DNA of 64,000 nucleotides from Candidatus Aenigmatarchaeota archaeon. Its GTDB lineage: Archaea > Aenigmatarchaeota > Aenigmatarchaeia > PWEA01 > JACQIF01. The position numbers and the translations under genes were made by a program. The notes below the pieces were generated by a model. That model made no database searches and had not been told where the DNA came from. It saw only the letters and a list, made by a program, of their open reading frames with translations. Shown one piece after another: positions 248 through 51,682 of this stretch (its first letter is position 1; the number at the start of each line of letters is the position of its first letter). The stretch covers positions 416,001 to 480,000 of the forward strand of contig CP066684.1 in NCBI GenBank assembly GCA_016432325.1, in the 5' to 3' direction.

Positions 248-3200
248 ATGGGTATTGGCACACGCGTTGCGACAGCTCTGATACTCGTTCTCGTAATAAC
301 GCCGTCGCTCGTGCTGGCCGCCGACACGAACAGCGGGCCTTTCAGGGGGGACGCGTTCCTGAAGATATCGGAGGACCTGACGCCGACGGACGCGGTCTTC
401 TACAAACTGACCACCGACCTTACAGAAGGTGCCGCCGCCGACCCCGAAAACAACGACTGGGACTTCAACGCCGCCGTGAACGTAACGGTTCACTTCCTCA
501 ACGCAACCTCTGGCACGCCTCCTCCTATACCCAACGGCGGCGCCACCGACATTTTCAGGATAGAACTCTACTACGACAACACGACAACGGCCGATCCAGT
601 TGCTTTCCTGTACAACGCACTGGTTCCGCCAGTCAACGACACGAACTTCACGTTCATGGTGTACGCCCGCGGAGCCAACATCTCAGGCACCACGGCCAAC
701 ACTCCATTCGCCCTCGTGGCGCCCAATGATACCACTCTGTACGCCAGCTTTCAAAAAAATGGCCCTTCGGTCGCCAAGAGCACGGACAGCGGGACGACGT
801 GGACTGTAGATCAGGTCAACAAAAGAGGCAACACTGGCATAACACAGATCCGGTTGGATGCCGTCAACACGACTCTCGTCTACATCGCTTACGACGATAA
901 TCCCAACAAGTCTGTCGAGGTGGCGAAGACGACGGACGGCGGGACGACGTGGGCCATAACTAACAACAGCAACCCCGTTGCGACGAGCGGCACCACGACA
1001 ACAAGGCTGTCCATGGACGCCTTCAACGACACCGTGGTCTATCTGTCGTACAAAGACGGAACGGACAACGATCTGAGAGTGATGAAGACGACGGACGGCG
1101 GGACGACGTGGGCCACGACCAACGGTAGTAGCCCAGTAGATTCTGCAGGGGATGTCGGTTCGGACAGTTCCATCATCGCAATCGATGCAAACACAGTATA
1201 CGTGGCGTATCGATATACGACAGAGGCAGATCTAAAAGTGGCGAAGACGACGGACGGCGGGACGACGTGGACGATAGCGAACAACAGCTTCCCTGTCGAT
1301 CAGATCGGCGGCCAAGAGACTTCAATCTCCGCGCTGGATGCCAACACGGTATTTGTAGCTTATCAGAGAGGGAATCCGCGCGGCTTCGGAGTGGCTAAGA
1401 CGACGGACGGCGGGACGAATTGGACCATCCTGAACGGCACAAATTCAATAGACCCCCTCGTTACCGTGCGCTGGACATCCATCCAAGCGATAAGCAACGA
1501 CACGCTCTACGTAGCGTACCAGGACAACACGCATGAAATCGTCAAGGTGGCGAAGACGACGGACGGCGGGACGAATTGGACACTGACGACCGTAGACTCT
1601 TCGTCTGCCATGGGGAGAGGCGTAGGCCTCGTCGCGAAAGACGCTAACAACCTCTATCTGGGCTACCGCGACTTCAACAACAGCCTGGCCAGATTCTCCA
1701 AGACCACGGACGGCGGCGAAGGATGGAGCGGGTACGGGTCCGGTGTCTTCCGTCTCAAGATGCGCGTCCGTTCGGTGACTGGCGCGACCACGGACTACGA
1801 CGCCGACACAGAAGCGGGGATAACCGATGCGACACAGCAGGTAACATACGACTCCACGCGTGCACAGGGCTTTGTTCGCGTAAACACGGGAGTCACGAAG
1901 TTCACCTCATACAAAGATATCAACTACACGCAGAACGAAACGCGCTTCATGCGCGGCGAAACCGTATACATGAAGGTCAATACTAACGCGGCCGCGTGGA
2001 ACGAGACCGGTGCCGAAAGCATGCGGCTTACGCTGACAGGTCCCACAACGACCCTTGTGAGTTTCCCTTTCAACCTCACGCGAAACGACAACGCCTATAG
2101 ATTTAATTGGACAATGCAGTCAGGCGTTGACCTTAATGACTACGATGTCGTGCTGAACGTTACGGGCAACACGAGCGCATTCACATCTGGCGACCTATGG
2201 ACGCAATTCAACTCCTCAAGCGTCGGCTTCGTCAACGCAAACAAAACGAACTTCTCCACGACGCTCATGACAGATCCAGACGGCGTGCTCAGCGATACGA
2301 ACGCCTCCTTCTGGGTGGAGGATGGGCTGCGCGTCGCTCAAGACTATGGCCCGCGCCTGAACGGCTCGAACTCGTCTACGATAAACGCGTACGTCCAGCG
2401 CGGTGAGGTAGTCAACGTCTCGTTCATTGTTCTCGACGAGTGGAACCGCACGTTCGCAAACCGCGAGATATTCTGGAACGCGAACACGAGCGGATATGAA
2501 CCCGCGATTGCCCGCGTGAACACGAGCCGCGCCGCGTACGTGGCGTGCGACGGCTACGATACGTCCTTGTCTGTCGTAAACACCACGACCGTTTACGTGG
2601 CCCACAGGAACAGGTGCTCGCTGGGCGTCAAGTTCACCAAGACGACAAACGGCGGCCAGTCGTGGAGCGGCGTGAACGTCTCCACTCTCGGAATTGCGCC
2701 GTCGCTGGAGGCGTTTAACTCCACGCTGATATACGTGAGCTACACAGACGACGAGGATGCCGACAAGTACAAATTCAACGTCTCCAAGAGCACGGACGGC
2801 GGGACGACGTGGACCGTGACGAACAACAGCAACCCCGTAGCCGGACCGGCGAGGCTCGTTGGCCGCTATGGAGACATGGATGTGGTGGATGCGGATACTG
2901 TGTACGTCGTCTACGCCGACAGCGCACAGAACCTCACTGTCGCAAAGACTACCAACGGCGGAACGTCTTGGACGATAACGAACAACAGCAACCCTGTAGC
3001 CGGGGATGCCCGCTCACCAACATTAAGAAATTCTATTGCGGCAGTCAACTCCACGCTGGTTTATGTGGCATACTACGCCAGTGGCAACGATCTCGCCATT
3101 GCGAAGACAGCCAACGGAGGCACATCATGGAACGTGACGACCGTGGACTCGGCAGGCGATGTCGGAGACAATCCGTCCATCGATGTTGTGGACGCCAACA

Positions 3201-23323: not shown

Positions 23324-24133
23324 TCAGCTCTTGGGAATATCCTTGGTCTTCGCCATGACGGTCGTGTTCACCCAGATTTTCTCCACGGGGTCCACGCGCA
23401 GCGACGAATTGAAGCCGAAGACGCGGCCAACCGTTATGTTCACCGTGTTAGCCGAGCCTGTGAAGTTTATCATGTAGACGCTCGTTCCGGTGCGGGAAAC
23501 GGAGCTTGTGAATGTGCGGTTCAGGACCGATATGTGCAGGGTCATGTTTCCGGACGTTTCGGATATCGTGGATATGTTGGCCGCGGAAACGCCTGACGTG
23601 AGCGGCACCACAAAGACCTCATAACGGGTGATGAAGTTCGCGCTCGTATCCTTCTGGAGAACGCTTATGTTGTTCTTCGCAAAGTCCGAATAGTTGTAGG
23701 CGGCGTTCATGCCTGTTATCGTGAAAAACGACTGGTTGGCCGGAACGCTCGCATTGAAATCCAGCGCGTATGAAAGGTTCATCTGGTCGGCCAGGAAATC
23801 GCGGTAGGCCTTGAACGACACGTTATAAGGCTGGACGCGCGGCGCCTTGTCGGTGAAGTTCACGAACGTATGGGTTCGATTGGCCGTGACGCGAACGCCG
23901 ACATCCGCGAGCTTTTGCACGTGCGAGCCCGCGTAGAGGAACGCCTGCGGGATGCCGATGTCCTCGCTTGTGGCGAGTTCGAGGTCGCTGGCAAAGACCC
24001 TGTAGTTGGTCAGAAGCGAAACAAGCGAGACGGCTATGAGGACGGACATCAATGTGAAAACGATTCCCTTTGCGACGTTTTCAGTCTTCCCTCTTCTTCG
24101 GGAAGGCGTAAAGACTATTCCGCGCCGGCTCAC
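23324..24133 (-). CDS. Pilin-like protein (class III signal peptide, duplicated GIVFT motif)
   Basis: RRGIVFT-13aa-GIVFTLMSVLIAVSLV. Confidence 0.75.
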   Translation of the reverse strand: MSRRGIVFTPSRRRGKTENVAKGIVFTLMSVLIAVSLVSLLTNYRVFASDLELATSEDIGIPQAFLYAGSHVQKLADVGVRVTANRTHTFVNFTDKAPRVQPYNVSFKAYRDFLADQMNLSYALDFNASVPANQSFFTITGMNAAYNYSDFAKNNISVLQKDTSANFITRYEVFVVPLTSGVSAANISTISETSGNMTLHISVLNRTFTSSVSRTGTSVYMINFTGSANTVNITVGRVFGFNSSLRVDPVEKIWVNTTVMAKTKDIPKS

Positions 24134-24621
24134 AAGGACACCCCGAGACGGACCTTGGCTATGGCCGTCATGTTCTTCACCTGCGACGACGCGGATTCGT
24201 TGACCATTATGGGAACGGGCCTGGACGCGTATACCGCGTCCCTTTCCTCCGGTATCATATTGACCGTCAACGTGCGGTCGAACGTGAGCCCGCCGGTGGG
24301 CGTTACGTTGAAATAGTCCACGATGAACGCATAGCGGACAAACGACGGCAGCGTCTGGTTCACAGTGGCGTTTATCGCGTCCGCGTTCCTCGAGTCGAAC
24401 GCGCCTCTCTCCTCCATCACGGCCAGCGTGTCGATGGACATGCGTTCGAGGACGGCCTCGCTTCTCGACGGCTGTTCGACGGTGAAGGAGAACGACAGGA
24501 TTGCAAAGGCTATTATGGCCGCGCCGATGAGCGAATCGACTGTGAAGACAAAGCCCTTTGTGCTGTTTTCAAGCTTCCCGCGCTGCGCTTGTGAAGCAGT
24601 AAAAACAAAGTTTTTGTCCAT
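24130..24621 (-). CDS. Pilin-like protein (class III signal peptide, duplicated FVFT motif)
   Basis: KNFVFT-13aa-KGFVFTVDSLIGAAII. Confidence 0.78.
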   Translation of the reverse strand: MDKNFVFTASQAQRGKLENSTKGFVFTVDSLIGAAIIAFAILSFSFTVEQPSRSEAVLERMSIDTLAVMEERGAFDSRNADAINATVNQTLPSFVRYAFIVDYFNVTPTGGLTFDRTLTVNMIPEERDAVYASRPVPIMVNESASSQVKNMTAIAKVRLGVSL

Positions 24622-26750: not shown

Positions 26751-27371
26751 TCAGTCCGTCTGGGCTCTGGCCTTGAGTGTCGTCGACGGCGCATAGATGA
26801 CGTTCGTCTCGGTATCGGTGTAGTTGAATGTCAGCTTTACGGAGTAGATGCCTCCTATGCTCTTGGTTATGCCGTGAAGCGTCGTGTTTATGGGCAGGAC
26901 CCGCGTCGCCGTCTCTCCGGGGAACAGTGTTGCAGGCGTAACGTTCGTCACCAGTTGCGTCAGCGTGGACTTGTCTATTTCTGTTACGTTAATCGAATTG
27001 AGCGTTATCTTGTTGGCGCCGTTGTTTTGGACCACCACGGTGAACGTATCGTTGACGTTGTCCCCGCCCGTAACGCCCCATTTGTGGCCGATGACTGCCA
27101 GCTGTTCGAACTGTTGCGAAAGCGACGAACCCGAGCTTGACAAGGAGAATCCTATATCGCCTATGTTGAGGCTGAAGATGGCCACGCCCACGATAACCAC
27201 TATGGCGATGGCCCACGCGTAGTTCATGAGATACTCGATGGCGGCCTGTCCGCGCCTGTTCCCCGACGGTATCTCAACACCACGCCTGCTGGCGCGGTTC
27301 ATTAGATACTCGATGGCGGCCTGTCCGCGCCTTTGCATTTGCCGTATTGGTTTTCCTGCCGTCCTTTTCAT
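26751..27371 (-). CDS. Type IV pilin (GQxAIEYLMNYAWAI family) with duplicated cleavage motif
   Basis: RRGQAAIEYLMN occurs twice; start placed at ATG 27371. Confidence 0.85.
   Translation of the reverse strand: MKRTAGKPIRQMQRRGQAAIEYLMNRASRRGVEIPSGNRRGQAAIEYLMNYAWAIAIVVIVGVAIFSLNIGDIGFSLSSSGSSLSQQFEQLAVIGHKWGVTGGDNVNDTFTVVVQNNGANKITLNSINVTEIDKSTLTQLVTNVTPATLFPGETATRVLPINTTLHGITKSIGGIYSVKLTFNYTDTETNVIYAPSTTLKARAQTD
27222..27332. repeat. 36-bp direct repeat (1 mismatch) with 39-bp spacer
   Basis: 27222..27257 and 27297..27332. Confidence 0.95.
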
Positions 27372-27412: not shown

Positions 27413-27943
27413 TCAGCCTGCCTGCACCGTGCCCGTGAAGTTCCTCGAAGGTTTGAATGTCAGGCCGCTCACGTCGTCTATGTACGATACGGTTACTTGT
27501 ATCTCGTACGACTGGCCTACGTTTCCGCATCTGATGCCCCTGCCGCCTGTGGACGTGTTCCTGCATATCTGAGTCTGCCCTGGGAATATGTCAGGCGTAC
27601 CTGTGCAGTCCGTGAGGACCGTCGAGCTCTCGTTGCTGGCGTTAAGGTAGATGTCCTTTATCTGCCCGGCGCCGTTGTTCTGCACGGAAACGGAGAAACG
27701 ACCTTCGCTGTCGCACAGGTAGCCCACGACCGCGAGCTGTTCGCCTGCCTGCGTTATCTGGGAAGACTGCGACGTCAGGGAGTTGCGGATGCCTCCTATA
27801 TTGAGCTGGAAGATGGCGATGCCGACGATGATTATGAGAGCTATGGCCCACGCGTAGTTCATTAGGTATTCGATGGCAGACTGTCCCTTCGGGGAGGGAC
27901 GCCTGTTGTCGTGGGGTTTGTTGGCAGAACGCATACTCTTCAT
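27413..27943 (-). CDS. Type IV pilin (GQSAIEYLMNYAWAI family)
   Basis: KG/QSAIEYLMNYAWAIALIIIVGI; paralog of 26751..27371. Confidence 0.88.
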   Translation of the reverse strand: MKSMRSANKPHDNRRPSPKGQSAIEYLMNYAWAIALIIIVGIAIFQLNIGGIRNSLTSQSSQITQAGEQLAVVGYLCDSEGRFSVSVQNNGAGQIKDIYLNASNESSTVLTDCTGTPDIFPGQTQICRNTSTGGRGIRCGNVGQSYEIQVTVSYIDDVSGLTFKPSRNFTGTVQAG

Positions 27944-29007: not shown

Positions 29008-29282
29008 GCGACATCGGCCTGCTTCTGGGTCTTTTCGGGATTGCCGTGGGCCTCGGAGCCATAGCGGTGCTTTTCTTCAACGCCGACCGTGCCCTGCCCG
29101 CGTACAGGAGGATTAACGAACTGTTTTCCATCGTACTTCTGTCGATGCTTGTTGGCGCGTCTAGCCTTCTCCTTGGATTCCTGCTCTCTATTGAAACCTA
29201 CCCGGATGCGATAGCCGTCGTCTCGCAGATGGCCGGCGCTGCCGTCATCATATACGCCGTCAGGAACGCGGAGGCGCGCTAA
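29004..29282 (+). CDS. Small integral membrane protein (3 TM)
   Basis: Hydrophobic, ATGA-coupled to upstream gene. Confidence 0.65.
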   Translation: MSDIGLLLGLFGIAVGLGAIAVLFFNADRALPAYRRINELFSIVLLSMLVGASSLLLGFLLSIETYPDAIAVVSQMAGAAVIIYAVRNAEAR

Positions 29283-30223
29283 GCGCTGAGTCCAACCAGC
29301 CCGGCGATGAGGCCTTTCGCCACGAAAAAGACCGCGAAAGACGTGGCCAGGAAAAAGGGCACGAACTTCAGCCCGACGCGCATGCTGCCGTCCTTGACTA
29401 TCCCTATTCCGAGAGACGTGAAGAAGCTCGTTATCGCTATGGCGGCGAGGAAGAAGTTTCTGAGCATATCTGCCGGAGGAACCGATGTGGAAAAAGACAG
29501 CAGGCCGAGAGGCGAGCCCCCTGTTCCCTGCGCAGAGGCGACGGCGAATATCTCGCCGCTTGCCTCGACAAGATAAGACGAAAGAGCGAACAGCAGAGGA
29601 GACGCCACGAGAGCCGCGAAGCCCAGGAAAAGCGTGTATGTTGTTGTCGATGCGCGTATGTCGCGCGTTATGTTCCGCATGTCGTTGATGTTGCGCGCCA
29701 TTGCCGTGCATACTGTGTCGACGTTGACCCCGCTTTCGACGCTGCGGCACAGCGTTTCGATCGTCTTCGCATAGAGCTGCGATTCCACACGCGCGCGCGT
29801 GGCGCGCAACGCGTCCACCATCGAGACGCCGGTGTTCATCTCTATGACGGCCGTCGACATCTCGACACCGAGCTGCCCGAACTCGTCTGTCATCAGGAGC
29901 TGCATGGAGTCTTTTATCGGCAGTCCGGCCTTCACGTTGGACGCCAGCAGTTCGAGCGCGTCTGTCAGCGAATCCTCTACCTCCCGCGCCTTTGCGTAAG
30001 CCATGTAATCGAGAGCGAACACCGTGCCAACGAATATTATCACAAACGCCAAAACGGCGCCCGCGGCTGTCACCAGCACGCTCTGCGTTATGAAGAACAG
30101 CGACAGCGCCGCGGCGGCGCTCAGGGGCAGGGCCATCTTGACCTGCAGTTTCATCCACTCCGCGGGCTTAATGCGGAGAGACGTCTTCTCCAGCCTGCTC
30201 CTGACATAACTCTCGTAACTCAA
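29279..30223 (-). CDS. Type II/IV secretion F-family (TadC-like) pilus platform protein
   Basis: VEDSLTDALELLASNVKAG...EFGQL..E; TM pattern; next to ATPase. Confidence 0.9.
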   Translation of the reverse strand: MSYESYVRSRLEKTSLRIKPAEWMKLQVKMALPLSAAAALSLFFITQSVLVTAAGAVLAFVIIFVGTVFALDYMAYAKAREVEDSLTDALELLASNVKAGLPIKDSMQLLMTDEFGQLGVEMSTAVIEMNTGVSMVDALRATRARVESQLYAKTIETLCRSVESGVNVDTVCTAMARNINDMRNITRDIRASTTTYTLFLGFAALVASPLLFALSSYLVEASGEIFAVASAQGTGGSPLGLLSFSTSVPPADMLRNFFLAAIAITSFFTSLGIGIVKDGSMRVGLKFVPFFLATSFAVFFVAKGLIAGLVGLSA

Positions 30224-30226
30224 GCG

Positions 30227-31099
30227 CTACACCTCCACAAGCGGCCTCCTGCTCCTCAGGAAGCCGATGGCCGACGCGTGGAACATCAGAAGGAAGAACG
30301 TCAGCATGTAGACGAGCGACTCCGTTATCGCCAGCCCTGTGAAAGTGGACAGCATGACCATGAGCGTCAGCCCCATCGAAGGAAGAACGATTCCCACCAT
30401 CAGGTAGAGCGTGGCCCAGAGATTTATCTCCTGGCCGTACGCCTTTACCTGGGCCTTCGTCTCTTCTGTCAGGTTCTCTATGACGACGGAGAGAAGCGTC
30501 GGTATGTCAGCGCCGCTCCTTATTCCGTTGAAGATTCTCAGCATCGCCGACTTGTATAGCTTGCTCGTGTTCTTGCGCATGCTGCGTTCCATGGCGTCCT
30601 CCAGCGGCGTGCCGATTCTTATGTCCTTGACGATTTCATTCATCTCTTCAGAAAGGTGGCCGTAGCCTTCCGTGAGGAGATCGAGGGAGTCGACGAACGA
30701 CATTCCCGCGTCGAGTTCGACCGATATGTCGCGAAGCGCGAAGAGCAGTTCGCGGTCGATGAGTTGCGCGCGCTTGTGCGCCTGTACCTTCGGGAAGCTC
30801 ATCCAGTACAGCAGCGTCACCGCGCCCATCGACAGGCCTGCGATGAGGGAGAACCCGAAAAACTGCAGGGCCTGGCCGGCAAAAATGGCCAGGGAAAATA
30901 CGGTCAGGAACGCCAGGGAGCCCATAAGGACCGCGTTGGCCAGTCCCAGCGTCGCATACTCATCGGCCGTTTCTTCGGCGTGTATCGCGTCGAGATAATA
31001 TTTCAGGGAGGGGCTGAGCTGAACCATCGCCGCCGCAGGTCCCCTGAAAAACCGCCGTGTGAACGGCAGCGTCTTGCGTATCGGAAACGGAGGGATCAT
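30227..31099 (-). CDS. Type II/IV secretion F-family (TadB/C-like) pilus platform protein
   Basis: IDRELLFALRDISVELDAG...YGHLSEE...GTPLEDA. Confidence 0.9.
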   Translation of the reverse strand: MIPPFPIRKTLPFTRRFFRGPAAAMVQLSPSLKYYLDAIHAEETADEYATLGLANAVLMGSLAFLTVFSLAIFAGQALQFFGFSLIAGLSMGAVTLLYWMSFPKVQAHKRAQLIDRELLFALRDISVELDAGMSFVDSLDLLTEGYGHLSEEMNEIVKDIRIGTPLEDAMERSMRKNTSKLYKSAMLRIFNGIRSGADIPTLLSVVIENLTEETKAQVKAYGQEINLWATLYLMVGIVLPSMGLTLMVMLSTFTGLAITESLVYMLTFFLLMFHASAIGFLRSRRPLVEV

Positions 31100-31145
31100 T
31101 TACCAACCTCGTTCAAAACAAGTAAAATTGCCGCGCGTTTTCATG

Positions 31146-32744
31146 TCAGACACCTTCAGCGCCGCGGTCTCCTTCAGGAGGCTTGCCCCTGCTCATCGCC
31201 CCGAGCAGGTCCTCCTTGTCCGTGTAGTACGCGTTTATGACCTTCGACACCTCTTCGATGCTCCTGACATTCTCCGCGAGCATCCAGTTGAGTATGCGCG
31301 TCTTCTCTTCAAGGTCCTGATCCATCTCCTGCCTGGTCATGCCGCTGAAGAAGAGCAGCTCTTCGACGAGGCGGGCGCTCTCTCCCACCCGTTCAAGAGC
31401 GTCCTTGCGCGCGTTCCACCTGAAGAGGGTGTTTGCCTTGACGTCGACGCGTTCAAACGAGTCGCCGGTGGATGTGATCTCGGCCACCTCAAGGGTGCGC
31501 CTGAAGCCCAGCCGCTTCTGCCTGTACTGGACGAGCGCCAGATGCATGGAAGCCATCATCGTCTTCGGCACGTTGATTGGCGGGTTCAGGAGACGGCGGA
31601 AGATGCCGTCGATGCGCGTGGCGTGGAGCGTTGAGTACGTCGAATGTCCTGTGTCCGAAGCCTCGAACAGGGTCTGCGCCTCCTGCGAGGTGCGGACTTC
31701 TCCCAGAACGATGCGATCCGGGCGCATGCGCATGGCGCTCAGCATCAGGTCGAGCACGGTTATCTGGTCCGCCTTTTCCCCGACCGACGCGCGCGTCGTA
31801 AGCGGTATCCAGTGCAGCGTCTCCGGAAGGTTCAATTCGCGCGCGTCCTCTATGGATATTATCCGCTGCTCCGGAGGGACGAACAGGAGAACGGCGTTGA
31901 GAAGCGACGTCTTCCCCGAGGCCGTGCCGCCTGCTATGAGCATGTTGAGCTCGTACTGCACAGACGTCCACAGAAGCGCGGCCACCTCGGGCGAGAGCGT
32001 CTTTATGTCCGGCGATATGAAGTCCACGATGGTCCACGGGTTTCGCCTGAACTTGCGTATGGTAAGCGTGTTGCCTTTGGTCGATATGGGATAGAGCGTC
32101 GCAGTGACGCGGTCTCCTGTGACGAGCATGGCGTCGTCCAGAAGGGGCCGCGCGATGTTTATCTCCTTGCCGAACCGGCTGGCTATCTTCTCGGCCAAAT
32201 CGTCTATCGCCTTTTCCGTGGCTATCACTACGTTCGTAGTCAGCCAGCCGTACTTCCTGTGGTAAACCATCGCAGGCACGCCCGAAGAGTTCACGCAGAT
32301 TTCCTCAAGGCTGTCGTCGTGCAGGAGCGGTTCCAGTTTGTCGAGCCCTATCATCTCCATGAGCAGCCGCACCGCGAGCATCTTCTTCTCGCGCGCGCCG
32401 AGATTGGGCATCATAGTTTCGAGGATGTCGTAGGTCGTCGATTCGAAGCGCTCTTCCACGTTCCTGTATTCGTCTACGGTCGTGAACTTCAGGCTCGTGG
32501 GCTTGAACCTCTTTATGAGCTGGGAGCGTATCTCGGCCTCTGTTCCGGGTCCCGTAGGCGTCAACGCCGGGTACTTCAGGATGTAGGAAGGGGTTGCGCG
32601 CCCCTCCGTGCGGCTTATCTCGATTTCCATCGGCACGCCGCGAACGGCTATTGTATAGTTCTCGAAGACCTTTCCCGCGTGCGTCGTCCGTTCGTGCACG
32701 TCTTCAAGCAGCCTGCCGATGATTTCCTGAGGAGCCTCGACCAT
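31146..32744 (-). CDS. Type IV pilus assembly ATPase (VirB11/CpaF/FlaI family)
   Basis: Walker A GGTASGKT, SIED..EL, MRMRPDRIVLGEVR, TGH...T.HA; start placed at ATG 32744. Confidence 0.95.
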   Translation of the reverse strand: MVEAPQEIIGRLLEDVHERTTHAGKVFENYTIAVRGVPMEIEISRTEGRATPSYILKYPALTPTGPGTEAEIRSQLIKRFKPTSLKFTTVDEYRNVEERFESTTYDILETMMPNLGAREKKMLAVRLLMEMIGLDKLEPLLHDDSLEEICVNSSGVPAMVYHRKYGWLTTNVVIATEKAIDDLAEKIASRFGKEINIARPLLDDAMLVTGDRVTATLYPISTKGNTLTIRKFRRNPWTIVDFISPDIKTLSPEVAALLWTSVQYELNMLIAGGTASGKTSLLNAVLLFVPPEQRIISIEDARELNLPETLHWIPLTTRASVGEKADQITVLDLMLSAMRMRPDRIVLGEVRTSQEAQTLFEASDTGHSTYSTLHATRIDGIFRRLLNPPINVPKTMMASMHLALVQYRQKRLGFRRTLEVAEITSTGDSFERVDVKANTLFRWNARKDALERVGESARLVEELLFFSGMTRQEMDQDLEEKTRILNWMLAENVRSIEEVSKVINAYYTDKEDLLGAMSRGKPPEGDRGAEGV

Positions 32745-32786
32745 AAGGGACCAAAAACACTTTATATTGGGCATTATATAAAACTA

Positions 32787-51516: not shown

Positions 51517-51637
51517 CCTTTCCACGCTTACCACCGTGTACGAGAACCAAAGGTTCTCGGCATGTCGGAAACGTTTGCGTTTCCGTACACGGTGCATGAA
51601 ACTGCCGTTTCATACCGCCTTTTCCACGCTTACCACC
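51517..51637. repeat. 20-bp perfect direct repeat enclosing a two-hairpin element (51537..51589) and a third hairpin
   Basis: CCTTTCCACGCTTACCACCG at 51517 and 51618. Confidence 0.92.
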
Positions 51638-51682
51638 GCGGTGGTCGAAAAAGCTTGACATTCCCGGCGCACCATAAACGGC

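Follow-up and report, generated by a model that had tools for sequence, protein, structure and literature searches.

How does a pilin gene come to encode its own peptidase cut-site motif twice, and what is the short unique segment between the two copies? The question is raised by a minus-strand gene in a 64,000-nt stretch of a Candidatus Aenigmatarchaeota genome, G000 (874,869 bp, GC 55.9%); this stretch is called the window here (G000:C1:416001-480000). The leader of the gene contains a 36-nt direct repeat around a 39-nt spacer. An earlier reading of the letters alone (the sequence-only reading) had taken this layout for a recent duplication whose spacer holds the reverse complement of its target, and had suggested a programmable or target-adapted mechanism. 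On the account that we consider the likelier one, an old duplication of the gene start with a fold-back spacer is translated as extra leader and would be cut at the second site; the spacer complement would mark a stem kept in two species, not a targeting guide.

The doubled leader

The gene and the parts of its leader are as follows (ORF, open reading frame).

26751..27371, minus strand: putative Epd/Flp-like type IV pilin gene, its signal peptide of class III (ORF; homologues share KGQxAxEYLMxYxWA)
27297..27332, minus strand: R1, upstream copy of the 12 codons for RRGQAAIEYLMN, comprising the cut-site motif and the first 9 mature residues; has CTA
27258..27296, minus strand: spacer S, 39 nt, encoding RASRRGVEIPSGN; single-copy in the genome
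27222..27257, minus strand: R2, downstream copy of RRGQAAIEYLMN; has CTC and runs on into the hydrophobic helix YAWAIAIVVIVGVAIF
27269..27276, minus strand: anti-R, coding-strand UGAGAUAC; fully complementary to GUAUCUCA in R2, and at 7/8 positions to GUAUCUAA in R1
27279..27298, minus strand: hp1, hairpin ACCGCGCC-AGCA-GGCGUGGU (coding strand) at the R1/S junction, from folding and comparison by eye

The in-frame repeat with one synonymous mismatch, as first described, was confirmed on the sequence. Positions 27222-27257 and 27297-27332 are identical at 35 of 36 nt with a period of 75, and the sole difference (G27228/T27303) gives CTC/CTA on the coding strand, both Leu. The repeat stretches to 41 nt at 38/41 identity, and GAAC flanks the spacer on both sides. 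The ORF is open from ATG 27371 (M1). A second candidate start at ATG 27338 (M12, MQRRG...) aligns with the start of an upstream ORF in the sister species, and an independent gene call placed the start at the same codon.

The encoded N-terminus reads MKRTAGKPIRQ-MQRRG-QAAIEYLMN-RASRRGVEIPSGN-RRG-QAAIEYLMN-YAWAIAIVVIVGVAIF, with the helix reading YAWAIAIVV... A class III signal peptide has a basic leader ending in G or A at –1, Q at +1, E at +5 and then a hydrophobic helix of ~20 aa. These features are found at R2 (RRG↓QAAIEYLMNYAWAIAIVVIVGVAIF, the arrow marking the cut: basic leader to G, Q+1, E+5, helix), while R1 has the cut-site motif without a hydrophobic helix after it. The translated leader thus bears out the earlier description of two candidate peptidase sites, only the second followed by the helix, and the G↓Q of R2 is predicted to be the real prepilin-peptidase site.

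It had also been proposed that recombination between the repeats would restore a clean gene. The sequence supports this, as a deletion between them in G000 would leave the short-leader form MQRRG↓QAAIEYLMNYAW... With copies that are 35/36 identical and lie 39 nt apart with a hairpin in between, the G000 form may possibly undergo this 75-bp deletion at a measurable frequency, restoring the short-leader gene.

The same layout in a sister species

The only other genome of the genus, G001, is a groundwater metagenome-assembled genome (MAG) of the sister species (Ca. Aenigmatarchaeota), 73% complete. The search for a second motif copy upstream of a homologue covered 41 related genomes, together with 26 loci from species representatives and 15 from JGI metagenomes; G001 alone had one. 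No orthologues beyond G001 that could serve for covariation were found in JGI metagenomes or GTDB species representatives. An empty site was not seen in close relatives, as the sister species is filled; more distant families have a single motif.

L002:1122-1202 on G001 contig C32 (JACQIF010000075): upstream ORF and pilin start; the ORF copies the start of the next pilin

The G001 orthologue starts MLGNNRG↓QASIEYLMNYAW, and the second motif copy lies 77 nt upstream in another frame. It belongs to an upstream ORF of 26 codons, MDSLKGQASIEYFMTSRATRGRFEIC, whose TAG stop overlaps the pilin ATG (ATATGCTAG). This stop/start overlap is confined to G001; in G000, both ORFs are fused in frame. The DNA alignment of the two species spans the whole unit (upstream ATG, R1, spacer and R2), and the repeat starts and stops at equal codons in both. 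The 60 nt preceding the cut-site codons in G001 can be aligned to the region that precedes R2 in G000 (0/2000 shuffles as good), but not to the one that precedes R1 (P 0.70). Spacer against spacer, P was ~0.003, the signal coming mostly from the 8-nt complement.

Both G001 copies encode GQASIEY, and their third bases differ in six consecutive codons, so the doubling in this species is old. In a third lineage (P0002/P0014/P0015, 60-65% identity), the protein reads MPKGQASVEFKMD-RRGQAAIEYLMN-Y, with the 12-codon unit in direct tandem and without a spacer. The term "recent duplication" is therefore not supported: the sister species has the same layout and boundaries, with its copies diverged at every synonymous site, and the third lineage has the unit in tandem. 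Since the doubling is shared by the sister and third lineages, the near-identity of R1 and R2 in G000 is read as later homogenization, and the simplest history that the sequences suggest is one old doubling followed by homogenization in G000. The residue at position +3 (A/A in G000, S/S in G001, S/A in P0002) shows the pattern that within-species conversion would lead one to expect. As GAAC stands on both sides of S, the P0002 lineage may plausibly have lost S in a precise manner.

The spacer complement and its folding

Spacer GTATCTCA (27269-27276) is the exact complement of repeat TGAGATAC (27227-27234). The statement that the spacer holds the reverse complement of its target is thus correct, over 8 nt. 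Among shuffled spacers or random genomic 39-mers, 1-2.5% show a complement of at least 8 nt, and a local-alignment test gave P 0.037; the complement therefore passes the comparison with shuffled controls that had been proposed for it, but modestly and post hoc. The repeat plus 20-nt flanks covers 20/39 nt of the spacer in 6-mers (P 0.02-0.03). Extending the source to +/-150 nt raised coverage to 27/39, which was not significant (P 0.08-0.18) as a sign of patchwork templating from that range.

The CGCGCC/GGCGTG hairpin reported earlier does exist, but the spacer alone folds no better than shuffles (z -0.28). The sister species has an AGCA(A)-loop hairpin at the position of hp1, with, by eye, two double changes and one broken pair. 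Minimum free energy (MFE) folding pairs the complement with R1, the copy nearer to it, in one long composite hairpin; the 3' part of R1 together with S reaches z -1.6 (11/200 shuffles). Pairing of anti-R with R2 is predicted in both species by RNAalifold from the two sequences, with a compensatory change from C-G to U-A (UGAGAUAC:GUAUCUCA in G000, UGAGAUAU:AUAUCUCA in G001).

The insert looks like a palindromic completion of the repeat end, which at the same time provides three segments that could exchange pairing partners. Fold-back template switching yields palindromic completion of a repeat end (PMC5677150). An inverted copy of flanking duplicated sequence, the mark of a template switch, is present in the insert as the 8-nt exact complement (P 0.01-0.04). 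Fold-back synthesis at the origin, or a conserved stem, explains the complement as well as any guide does.

Other doubled pilin leaders

Doubled motifs were also found in other pilin-like genes of G000.

23324..24621, minus strand: two minor-pilin-like genes with doubled motifs (GIVFT twice, 39-nt spacer; FVFT twice, 42-nt spacer)
G000:C1:711838-711919 (L053:838-919), outside the window: pilin #4, MLKSKNTNKSGQFF-MTYRPRRGKFEKLH-KSGQFFIISTII, exact 22-nt repeat with a 38-nt spacer

Six doubled pilin leaders were surveyed, each spacer being compared with its own repeat. In five of the six, the spacer has a complement of 8-9 nt to its own, different repeat (P 0.002-0.02 each), and the combined P over four independent loci was ~1e-4 by Fisher calculation. 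The loci besides the main one gave the following matches.

GIVFT gene, G000: TGAAAACG : CGTTTTCA, 8 nt, P 0.015
GIVFT gene, G001: GTGAAAAC : GTTTTCAC, 8 nt, P 0.02
Pilin at G000:711838: TGAAAAACT : AGTTTTTCA, 9 nt, P 0.002
FVFT gene, G000: best match only, 6 nt, P 0.34

The GIVFT spacer at 24068-24106 had been cited as the same architecture with the same spacer length. Its 39 nt are real; on the other hand, the GIVFT copies, like those of FVFT, differ at synonymous sites only, and in G001 the GIVFT spacer is 63 nt long with different inner hairpins, so that 39 nt is not a fixed property. The GIVFT copies (window 24047-24133; L027:2095-2205) hold their own spelling across species, ATAGTCTTTACG upstream and ATCGTTTTCAC downstream. 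The FVFT gene is doubled in G000 only, and G001 reads MDRG↓FVFTIDAM. In pilin #4, the 3' part of R1 and the spacer form a long composite hairpin (-24.3 kcal/mol, z -4.35); its spacer has no DNA-level orthology in G001 (P 0.9), where the orthologue has the leader MKGIGKTENHG↓QFF. Over all doubled leaders, spacer lengths of 0, 38, 39, 42, about 41-44 and 63 nt occur.

In a census of ~110 representatives with a recognizable motif, ~90 have leaders of 3-12 aa. In most of the few long leaders, part of the motif occurs a second time, with differing boundaries:

P0018: KKGQS - 11 aa - RKGQAS
P0138: GQAAIE - 10 aa - GQAAID
P0043: MEYLM twice
P0062: MEYMMTYG twice
P0007: RSSQKG / RSSRKG

A distant homologue on JGI contig Ga0180301_10109272 (L071, ~150-260) has a tandem cut site, KKSQ-KKGQ-RKGQ-KKGQ-AAIEYLMTYGW. 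Judged from these leaders, cut-site doubling has arisen several times, in ~6 independent lineages among the ~110 representatives. The recurrence suggests either that the site is a hot spot of mutation or that a decoy is selected. Of a pilin, only the leader is discarded; survivorship accounts for part of the recurrence, a hot spot or a function being also conceivable.

In one ORF, for a large pilin-like protein (G000:C1:546653-547831; L054:653-1831), KGISP occurs twice at a distance of 43 aa. The end of an 8-bp hairpin in this gene, TCGGGAAC/GTTCCCGA, lies 1 nt ahead of the internal ATG of MKTFMKNPLPHKG↓ISPVIAS.

Pilin identity and neighboring genes

An exhaustive phmmer search returned 179 representative homologues at E<=1e-3, and in nearly all of them the alignment to the R2 copy starts at residue 2-8 of the homologue. 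They share KGQxAxEYLMxYxWA and have short single leaders; relatives bear the names Candidatus Aenigmatarchaeota and Micrarchaeota. The full protein had no significant Pfam or NCBIfam match. It is assigned to the class-III-signal pilins because of its motif, its homology and its context, and not as a Pfam member; the G↓XXXXEY pattern is the one seen in EppA-dependent archaeal pilins and in the Flp pilins of bacteria.

Its neighbors are 5-7 small genes with a similar N-terminus, along with genes for a T2SSE ATPase and for two T2SSF platform proteins. A prepilin peptidase candidate lies elsewhere in the genome (Peptidase_A24, G000:151095-151436, 57 bits).

29279..32774, minus strand: pilus assembly genes (T2SSF 29279-30223, T2SSF 30227-31099, T2SSE ATPase 31146-32774)
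27413..27943, minus strand: adjacent paralogous pilin with a 20-aa leader; TGGCAGA twice, period 48, and a GTCCCT/AGGGAC hairpin

The comparison with this paralog that the sequence-only reading had proposed found both of the features named there. TGGCAGA stands at 27874-27880 and 27922-27928, with the GTCCCT/AGGGAC hairpin at 27883-27900 between the copies. The paralog leader may be an older, decayed form of the R1-S-R2 layout.

Origin of the spacer

Potential donors and mechanisms were considered in turn. Elsewhere in G000, only chance matches of 10-13 nt to the spacer were found; S matches only itself in G000, and the G001 spacer S' only itself in G001. A mobile miniature hairpin element, of the kind of miniature inverted-repeat transposable elements or Rickettsia palindromic elements (RPEs), was rejected on the grounds that the spacer is single-copy in both genomes and the sister site is filled. 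Cas1 (PF01867) had no match in the genome, while control profiles matched, and a genome-wide repeat scan revealed no array of clustered regularly interspaced short palindromic repeats (CRISPR); integration of the Cas1-Cas2 type, including "neo-CRISPR" formation, was rejected accordingly. An archaeal bulge-helix-bulge (BHB) intron splicing out 75 nt was likewise rejected: four BHB motifs occur in the region (background 2.4 per window) and none spans R1-S-R2. Loss of the flap endonuclease as a cause of duplications is excluded by the presence of FEN1 (XPG_N and XPG_I in one 350-aa ORF). Plain 75-bp tandem duplication with subsequent divergence does not fit, as there is no similarity outside the repeat at offset 75; S is also unlike the sequence before R1 or after R2.

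G000 has 16 short-range repeat-spacer-repeat sites in 800 kb, several with strong hairpins; at the other sites, repeats measure 15-36 nt and spacers 24-85 nt. A control genome of another family has 6 sites/400 kb compared with 8/400 kb in G000, one of the six being homologous to a G000 site at a gene start. Given this similar density, the phenomenon is not peculiar to G000.

A 25-nt repeat-spacer-repeat unit is common to two families of the order (G000:C1:31771-31851 and G019:C1:85189-85270). On the minus strand, the repeat has GGTGA, 5 nt and ATG, resembling a ribosome-binding site plus start; the G019 spacer holds the complement of CTCCCAT, and the unit appears to be a doubled gene start with an antisense segment. 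At window 51519-51638, an 84-nt insert between the copies of an exact 18-nt direct repeat folds (-26.6 kcal/mol, z -8) into three strong hairpins; for one hairpin, several related copies exist in the genome. The 21-35-nt repeats at window 782-1425 and 2819-3004, with periods of 150-159 nt, probably belong to a repetitive protein-coding region.

Proposed history and its rivals

In the history that we favor, R1 would be the original gene start, with its short basic leader, cut site and first 9 mature codons; S, the 39-nt spacer with a small hairpin and the 8-nt complement of the repeat; and R2, the copy running on into the protein. The layout would have arisen before the G000/G001 species split, probably by a 12-codon duplication with fold-back (template-switch) filler. 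In G001, R1 and S would then form the separate 26-codon upstream ORF ending on the pilin start codon, and in G000 a frame difference would fuse them to the pilin as a 25-residue leader extension. The comparison of the species suggests that R1 and R2 of G000 were recently re-equalized by gene conversion or copy-choice between the repeats, which would be why they look like a fresh duplication. Translation would start at M12 or M1 and pass through R1-S. The A24 prepilin peptidase would cut at the R2 site only, beside the membrane helix, and R1 and S would leave with the leader, giving a normal mature pilin. In G001, coupling may be possible, with the upstream ORF delivering ribosomes to a start codon inside the stem.

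Several observations weigh against parts of this account. PF04021 (Class_IIIsignal) stayed below its gathering score (E 0.61; 10.6 bits, cut-off 23.7), and cleavage at the second site only is predicted from the position of the helix. Folding is weak not only for the spacer by itself: a 121-211-nt region gave z -0.3 to -0.6 against shuffles, and R1 to R2 as RNA gave z -1.6. The genus has no more than two genomes, and the covariation from them amounts to one pair in anti-R:R2 and two in hp1. The spacers of the two species show no significant similarity beyond the 8-nt complement (P 0.12 and 0.19), so independent events at one site in the two species are still conceivable. The supposed conversion tract of 36 nt would have been hard to start had the copies diverged as in G001. 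Moreover, the 2-nt frame difference of G001 could be an assembly error in a 73%-complete MAG.

That last kind of error is a poor explanation for G000 itself. Short repeats can mis-assemble, and the genome record ends in 100 N (the single contig closes with ~100 N at G000:C1:874770-874869). The 75-nt period, however, is below typical read length, the copies differ at one base and the ORF stays open; mis-assembly is unlikely because, apart from the NCBI genome, 3 independent Logan contigs encode an identical protein (from M12 onward), and the sister species has the same layout. We regard an artefact of a collapsed or expanded repeat as exceedingly improbable. A young, one-step hairpin micro-insertion is, in our estimate, unlikely. 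It would have placed ~39 nt in G000 and duplicated a 36-bp target, the sister layout being an independent event at a preferred site. The 35/36 identity of the repeats agrees with it, as do the ~16 short-range sites, several with strong hairpins, the 22/22 repeat of pilin #4 around its composite palindrome with a spacer lacking DNA-level orthology in G001, and the lack of significant similarity between the spacers outside the complement. It leaves unexplained why the sister species has equal repeat boundaries, an equal order of parts (AGCA-loop hairpin, complement, G-N codons) and a near-equal period, with copies that are old and saturated at synonymous sites. The 12-codon unit is doubled in the third lineage too, the spacer is unique in each genome with a weak hairpin, and site density is similar in a control genome from another family.

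The readings that give the complement a task differ widely in probability. Guide-directed or CRISPR-like integration, by off-target Cas1-Cas2 acquisition or a target-pairing element, is largely refuted and very improbable. Its geometry fits (repeat 36, spacer 39), and complements matched to each target in several pilin leaders support the target-adapted part of the earlier suggestion. The programmable part is not supported: no Cas1, CRISPR-like array or spanning BHB motif was found, the spacer is single-copy, repeat and spacer lengths vary at other sites, and the layout is inherited. A working regulatory module is possible but doubtful. Here R1 and S would be a leader ORF with an RNA switch, the complement in S pairing with R1 or R2; in G001, the S:R2 stem would cover the pilin start codon and allow termination-reinitiation coupling, and the fused G000 form would keep the stem inside the ORF. 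The overlap of the G001 upstream stop with the pilin ATG speaks for it, together with the anti-R:R2 helix and compensatory pair. The sole R1/R2 difference in G000 falls within those 8 nt, where it makes R1:S weaker than S:R2, R1 is still protein-readable in three lineages, and the GIVFT copies keep their own codon spelling across species, with a stem predicted there too. Against this, the stem has only 8 bp and is AU-rich with a loop of ~34 nt, MFE folds favor R1:S and no fold clearly beats shuffles, the P0002 lineage lacks the spacer, and the synonymous excess between the copies (R1'/R2) would be expected if only R2 were constrained (an estimate, P ~0.16). A regulatory role as leader ORF or RNA switch is possible but unproven.

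A wider conjecture, which we put forward tentatively and rate as rather doubtful, is that pilin genes of the genus carry an undescribed gene-start module: translated spare first codons, a hairpin and an antisense to the true copy. It would be made by self-templating fold-back duplication, kept and periodically homogenized, and would control translation or phase-vary by 75-bp deletion; related doublings, known from five or more further pilin lineages of DPANN, would reflect the same process.

Returning to the old duplication, its consequences reach beyond the locus. A near-perfect short repeat can be old and kept alike by conversion, which calls for caution in dating "young" insertions in G000. 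One DNA serves as an upstream ORF in one species and as an in-frame leader extension in the next, a natural example of interconversion between the two. The start codon and signal peptide of the pilin gene and its neighbors are easily mis-called in annotation. The mature pilin, as far as the leader sequence tells, should be unchanged by the doubling. Pili are thought to be how tiny episymbiotic archaea grip their hosts, and changes in a pilin leader or in pilin translation bear on this lifestyle.

Comparison with known systems

The EppA-dependent (Epd) pilins of Methanococcus and the bacterial Flp/Tad pilins share the G↓XXXXEY motif. The present gene resembles them in its basic leader to G, Q at +1, E-Y at +5/+6 and helix, its operon with T2SSE and T2SSF, and an A24 peptidase in the genome. 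It differs in a leader of 30-41 aa, compared with the usual 3-12 aa, because the cut-site motif is encoded twice, and in scoring below threshold for PF04021. An overview of archaeal type IV filaments is available (PMC13705601).

Quasi-palindrome correction and palindrome elongation in rad27 yeast are template-switch or fold-back mutations and include direct-repeat duplications (PMC5677150). As in these, a direct duplication flanks a new, partly inverted copy of the flank, and the new sequence and the flank form a hairpin. However, only 8 nt are traceable here (20/39 nt by 6-mers, P ~0.02), FEN1 is present, and the structure has been kept over a species split and is not a transient mutation.

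Off-target spacer integration by Cas1-Cas2 ("neo-CRISPR") gives a repeat-length duplication around a spacer-length insert. The present locus has the same outline, but without Cas1 or an array, with varying duplication lengths at other sites and with an inherited layout. RPEs are multi-copy sequence families; the likeness lies in short hairpin-forming DNA tolerated in frame within a protein gene, whereas here a single-copy spacer is accompanied by a duplication of 36 nt from the host gene.

Leader ORFs of the ermC/cat type act by translational coupling or attenuation. In G001, similarly, the main start codon is where a short upstream ORF ends, and of three segments the middle one can pair with either outer one. 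Unlike in those systems, the upstream ORF copies the gene's own start and has no known stalling signal or inducer, and the G000 ORFs are fused in frame. The locus thus combines things that are each known: pilin leaders, gene-start duplications and leader ORFs.

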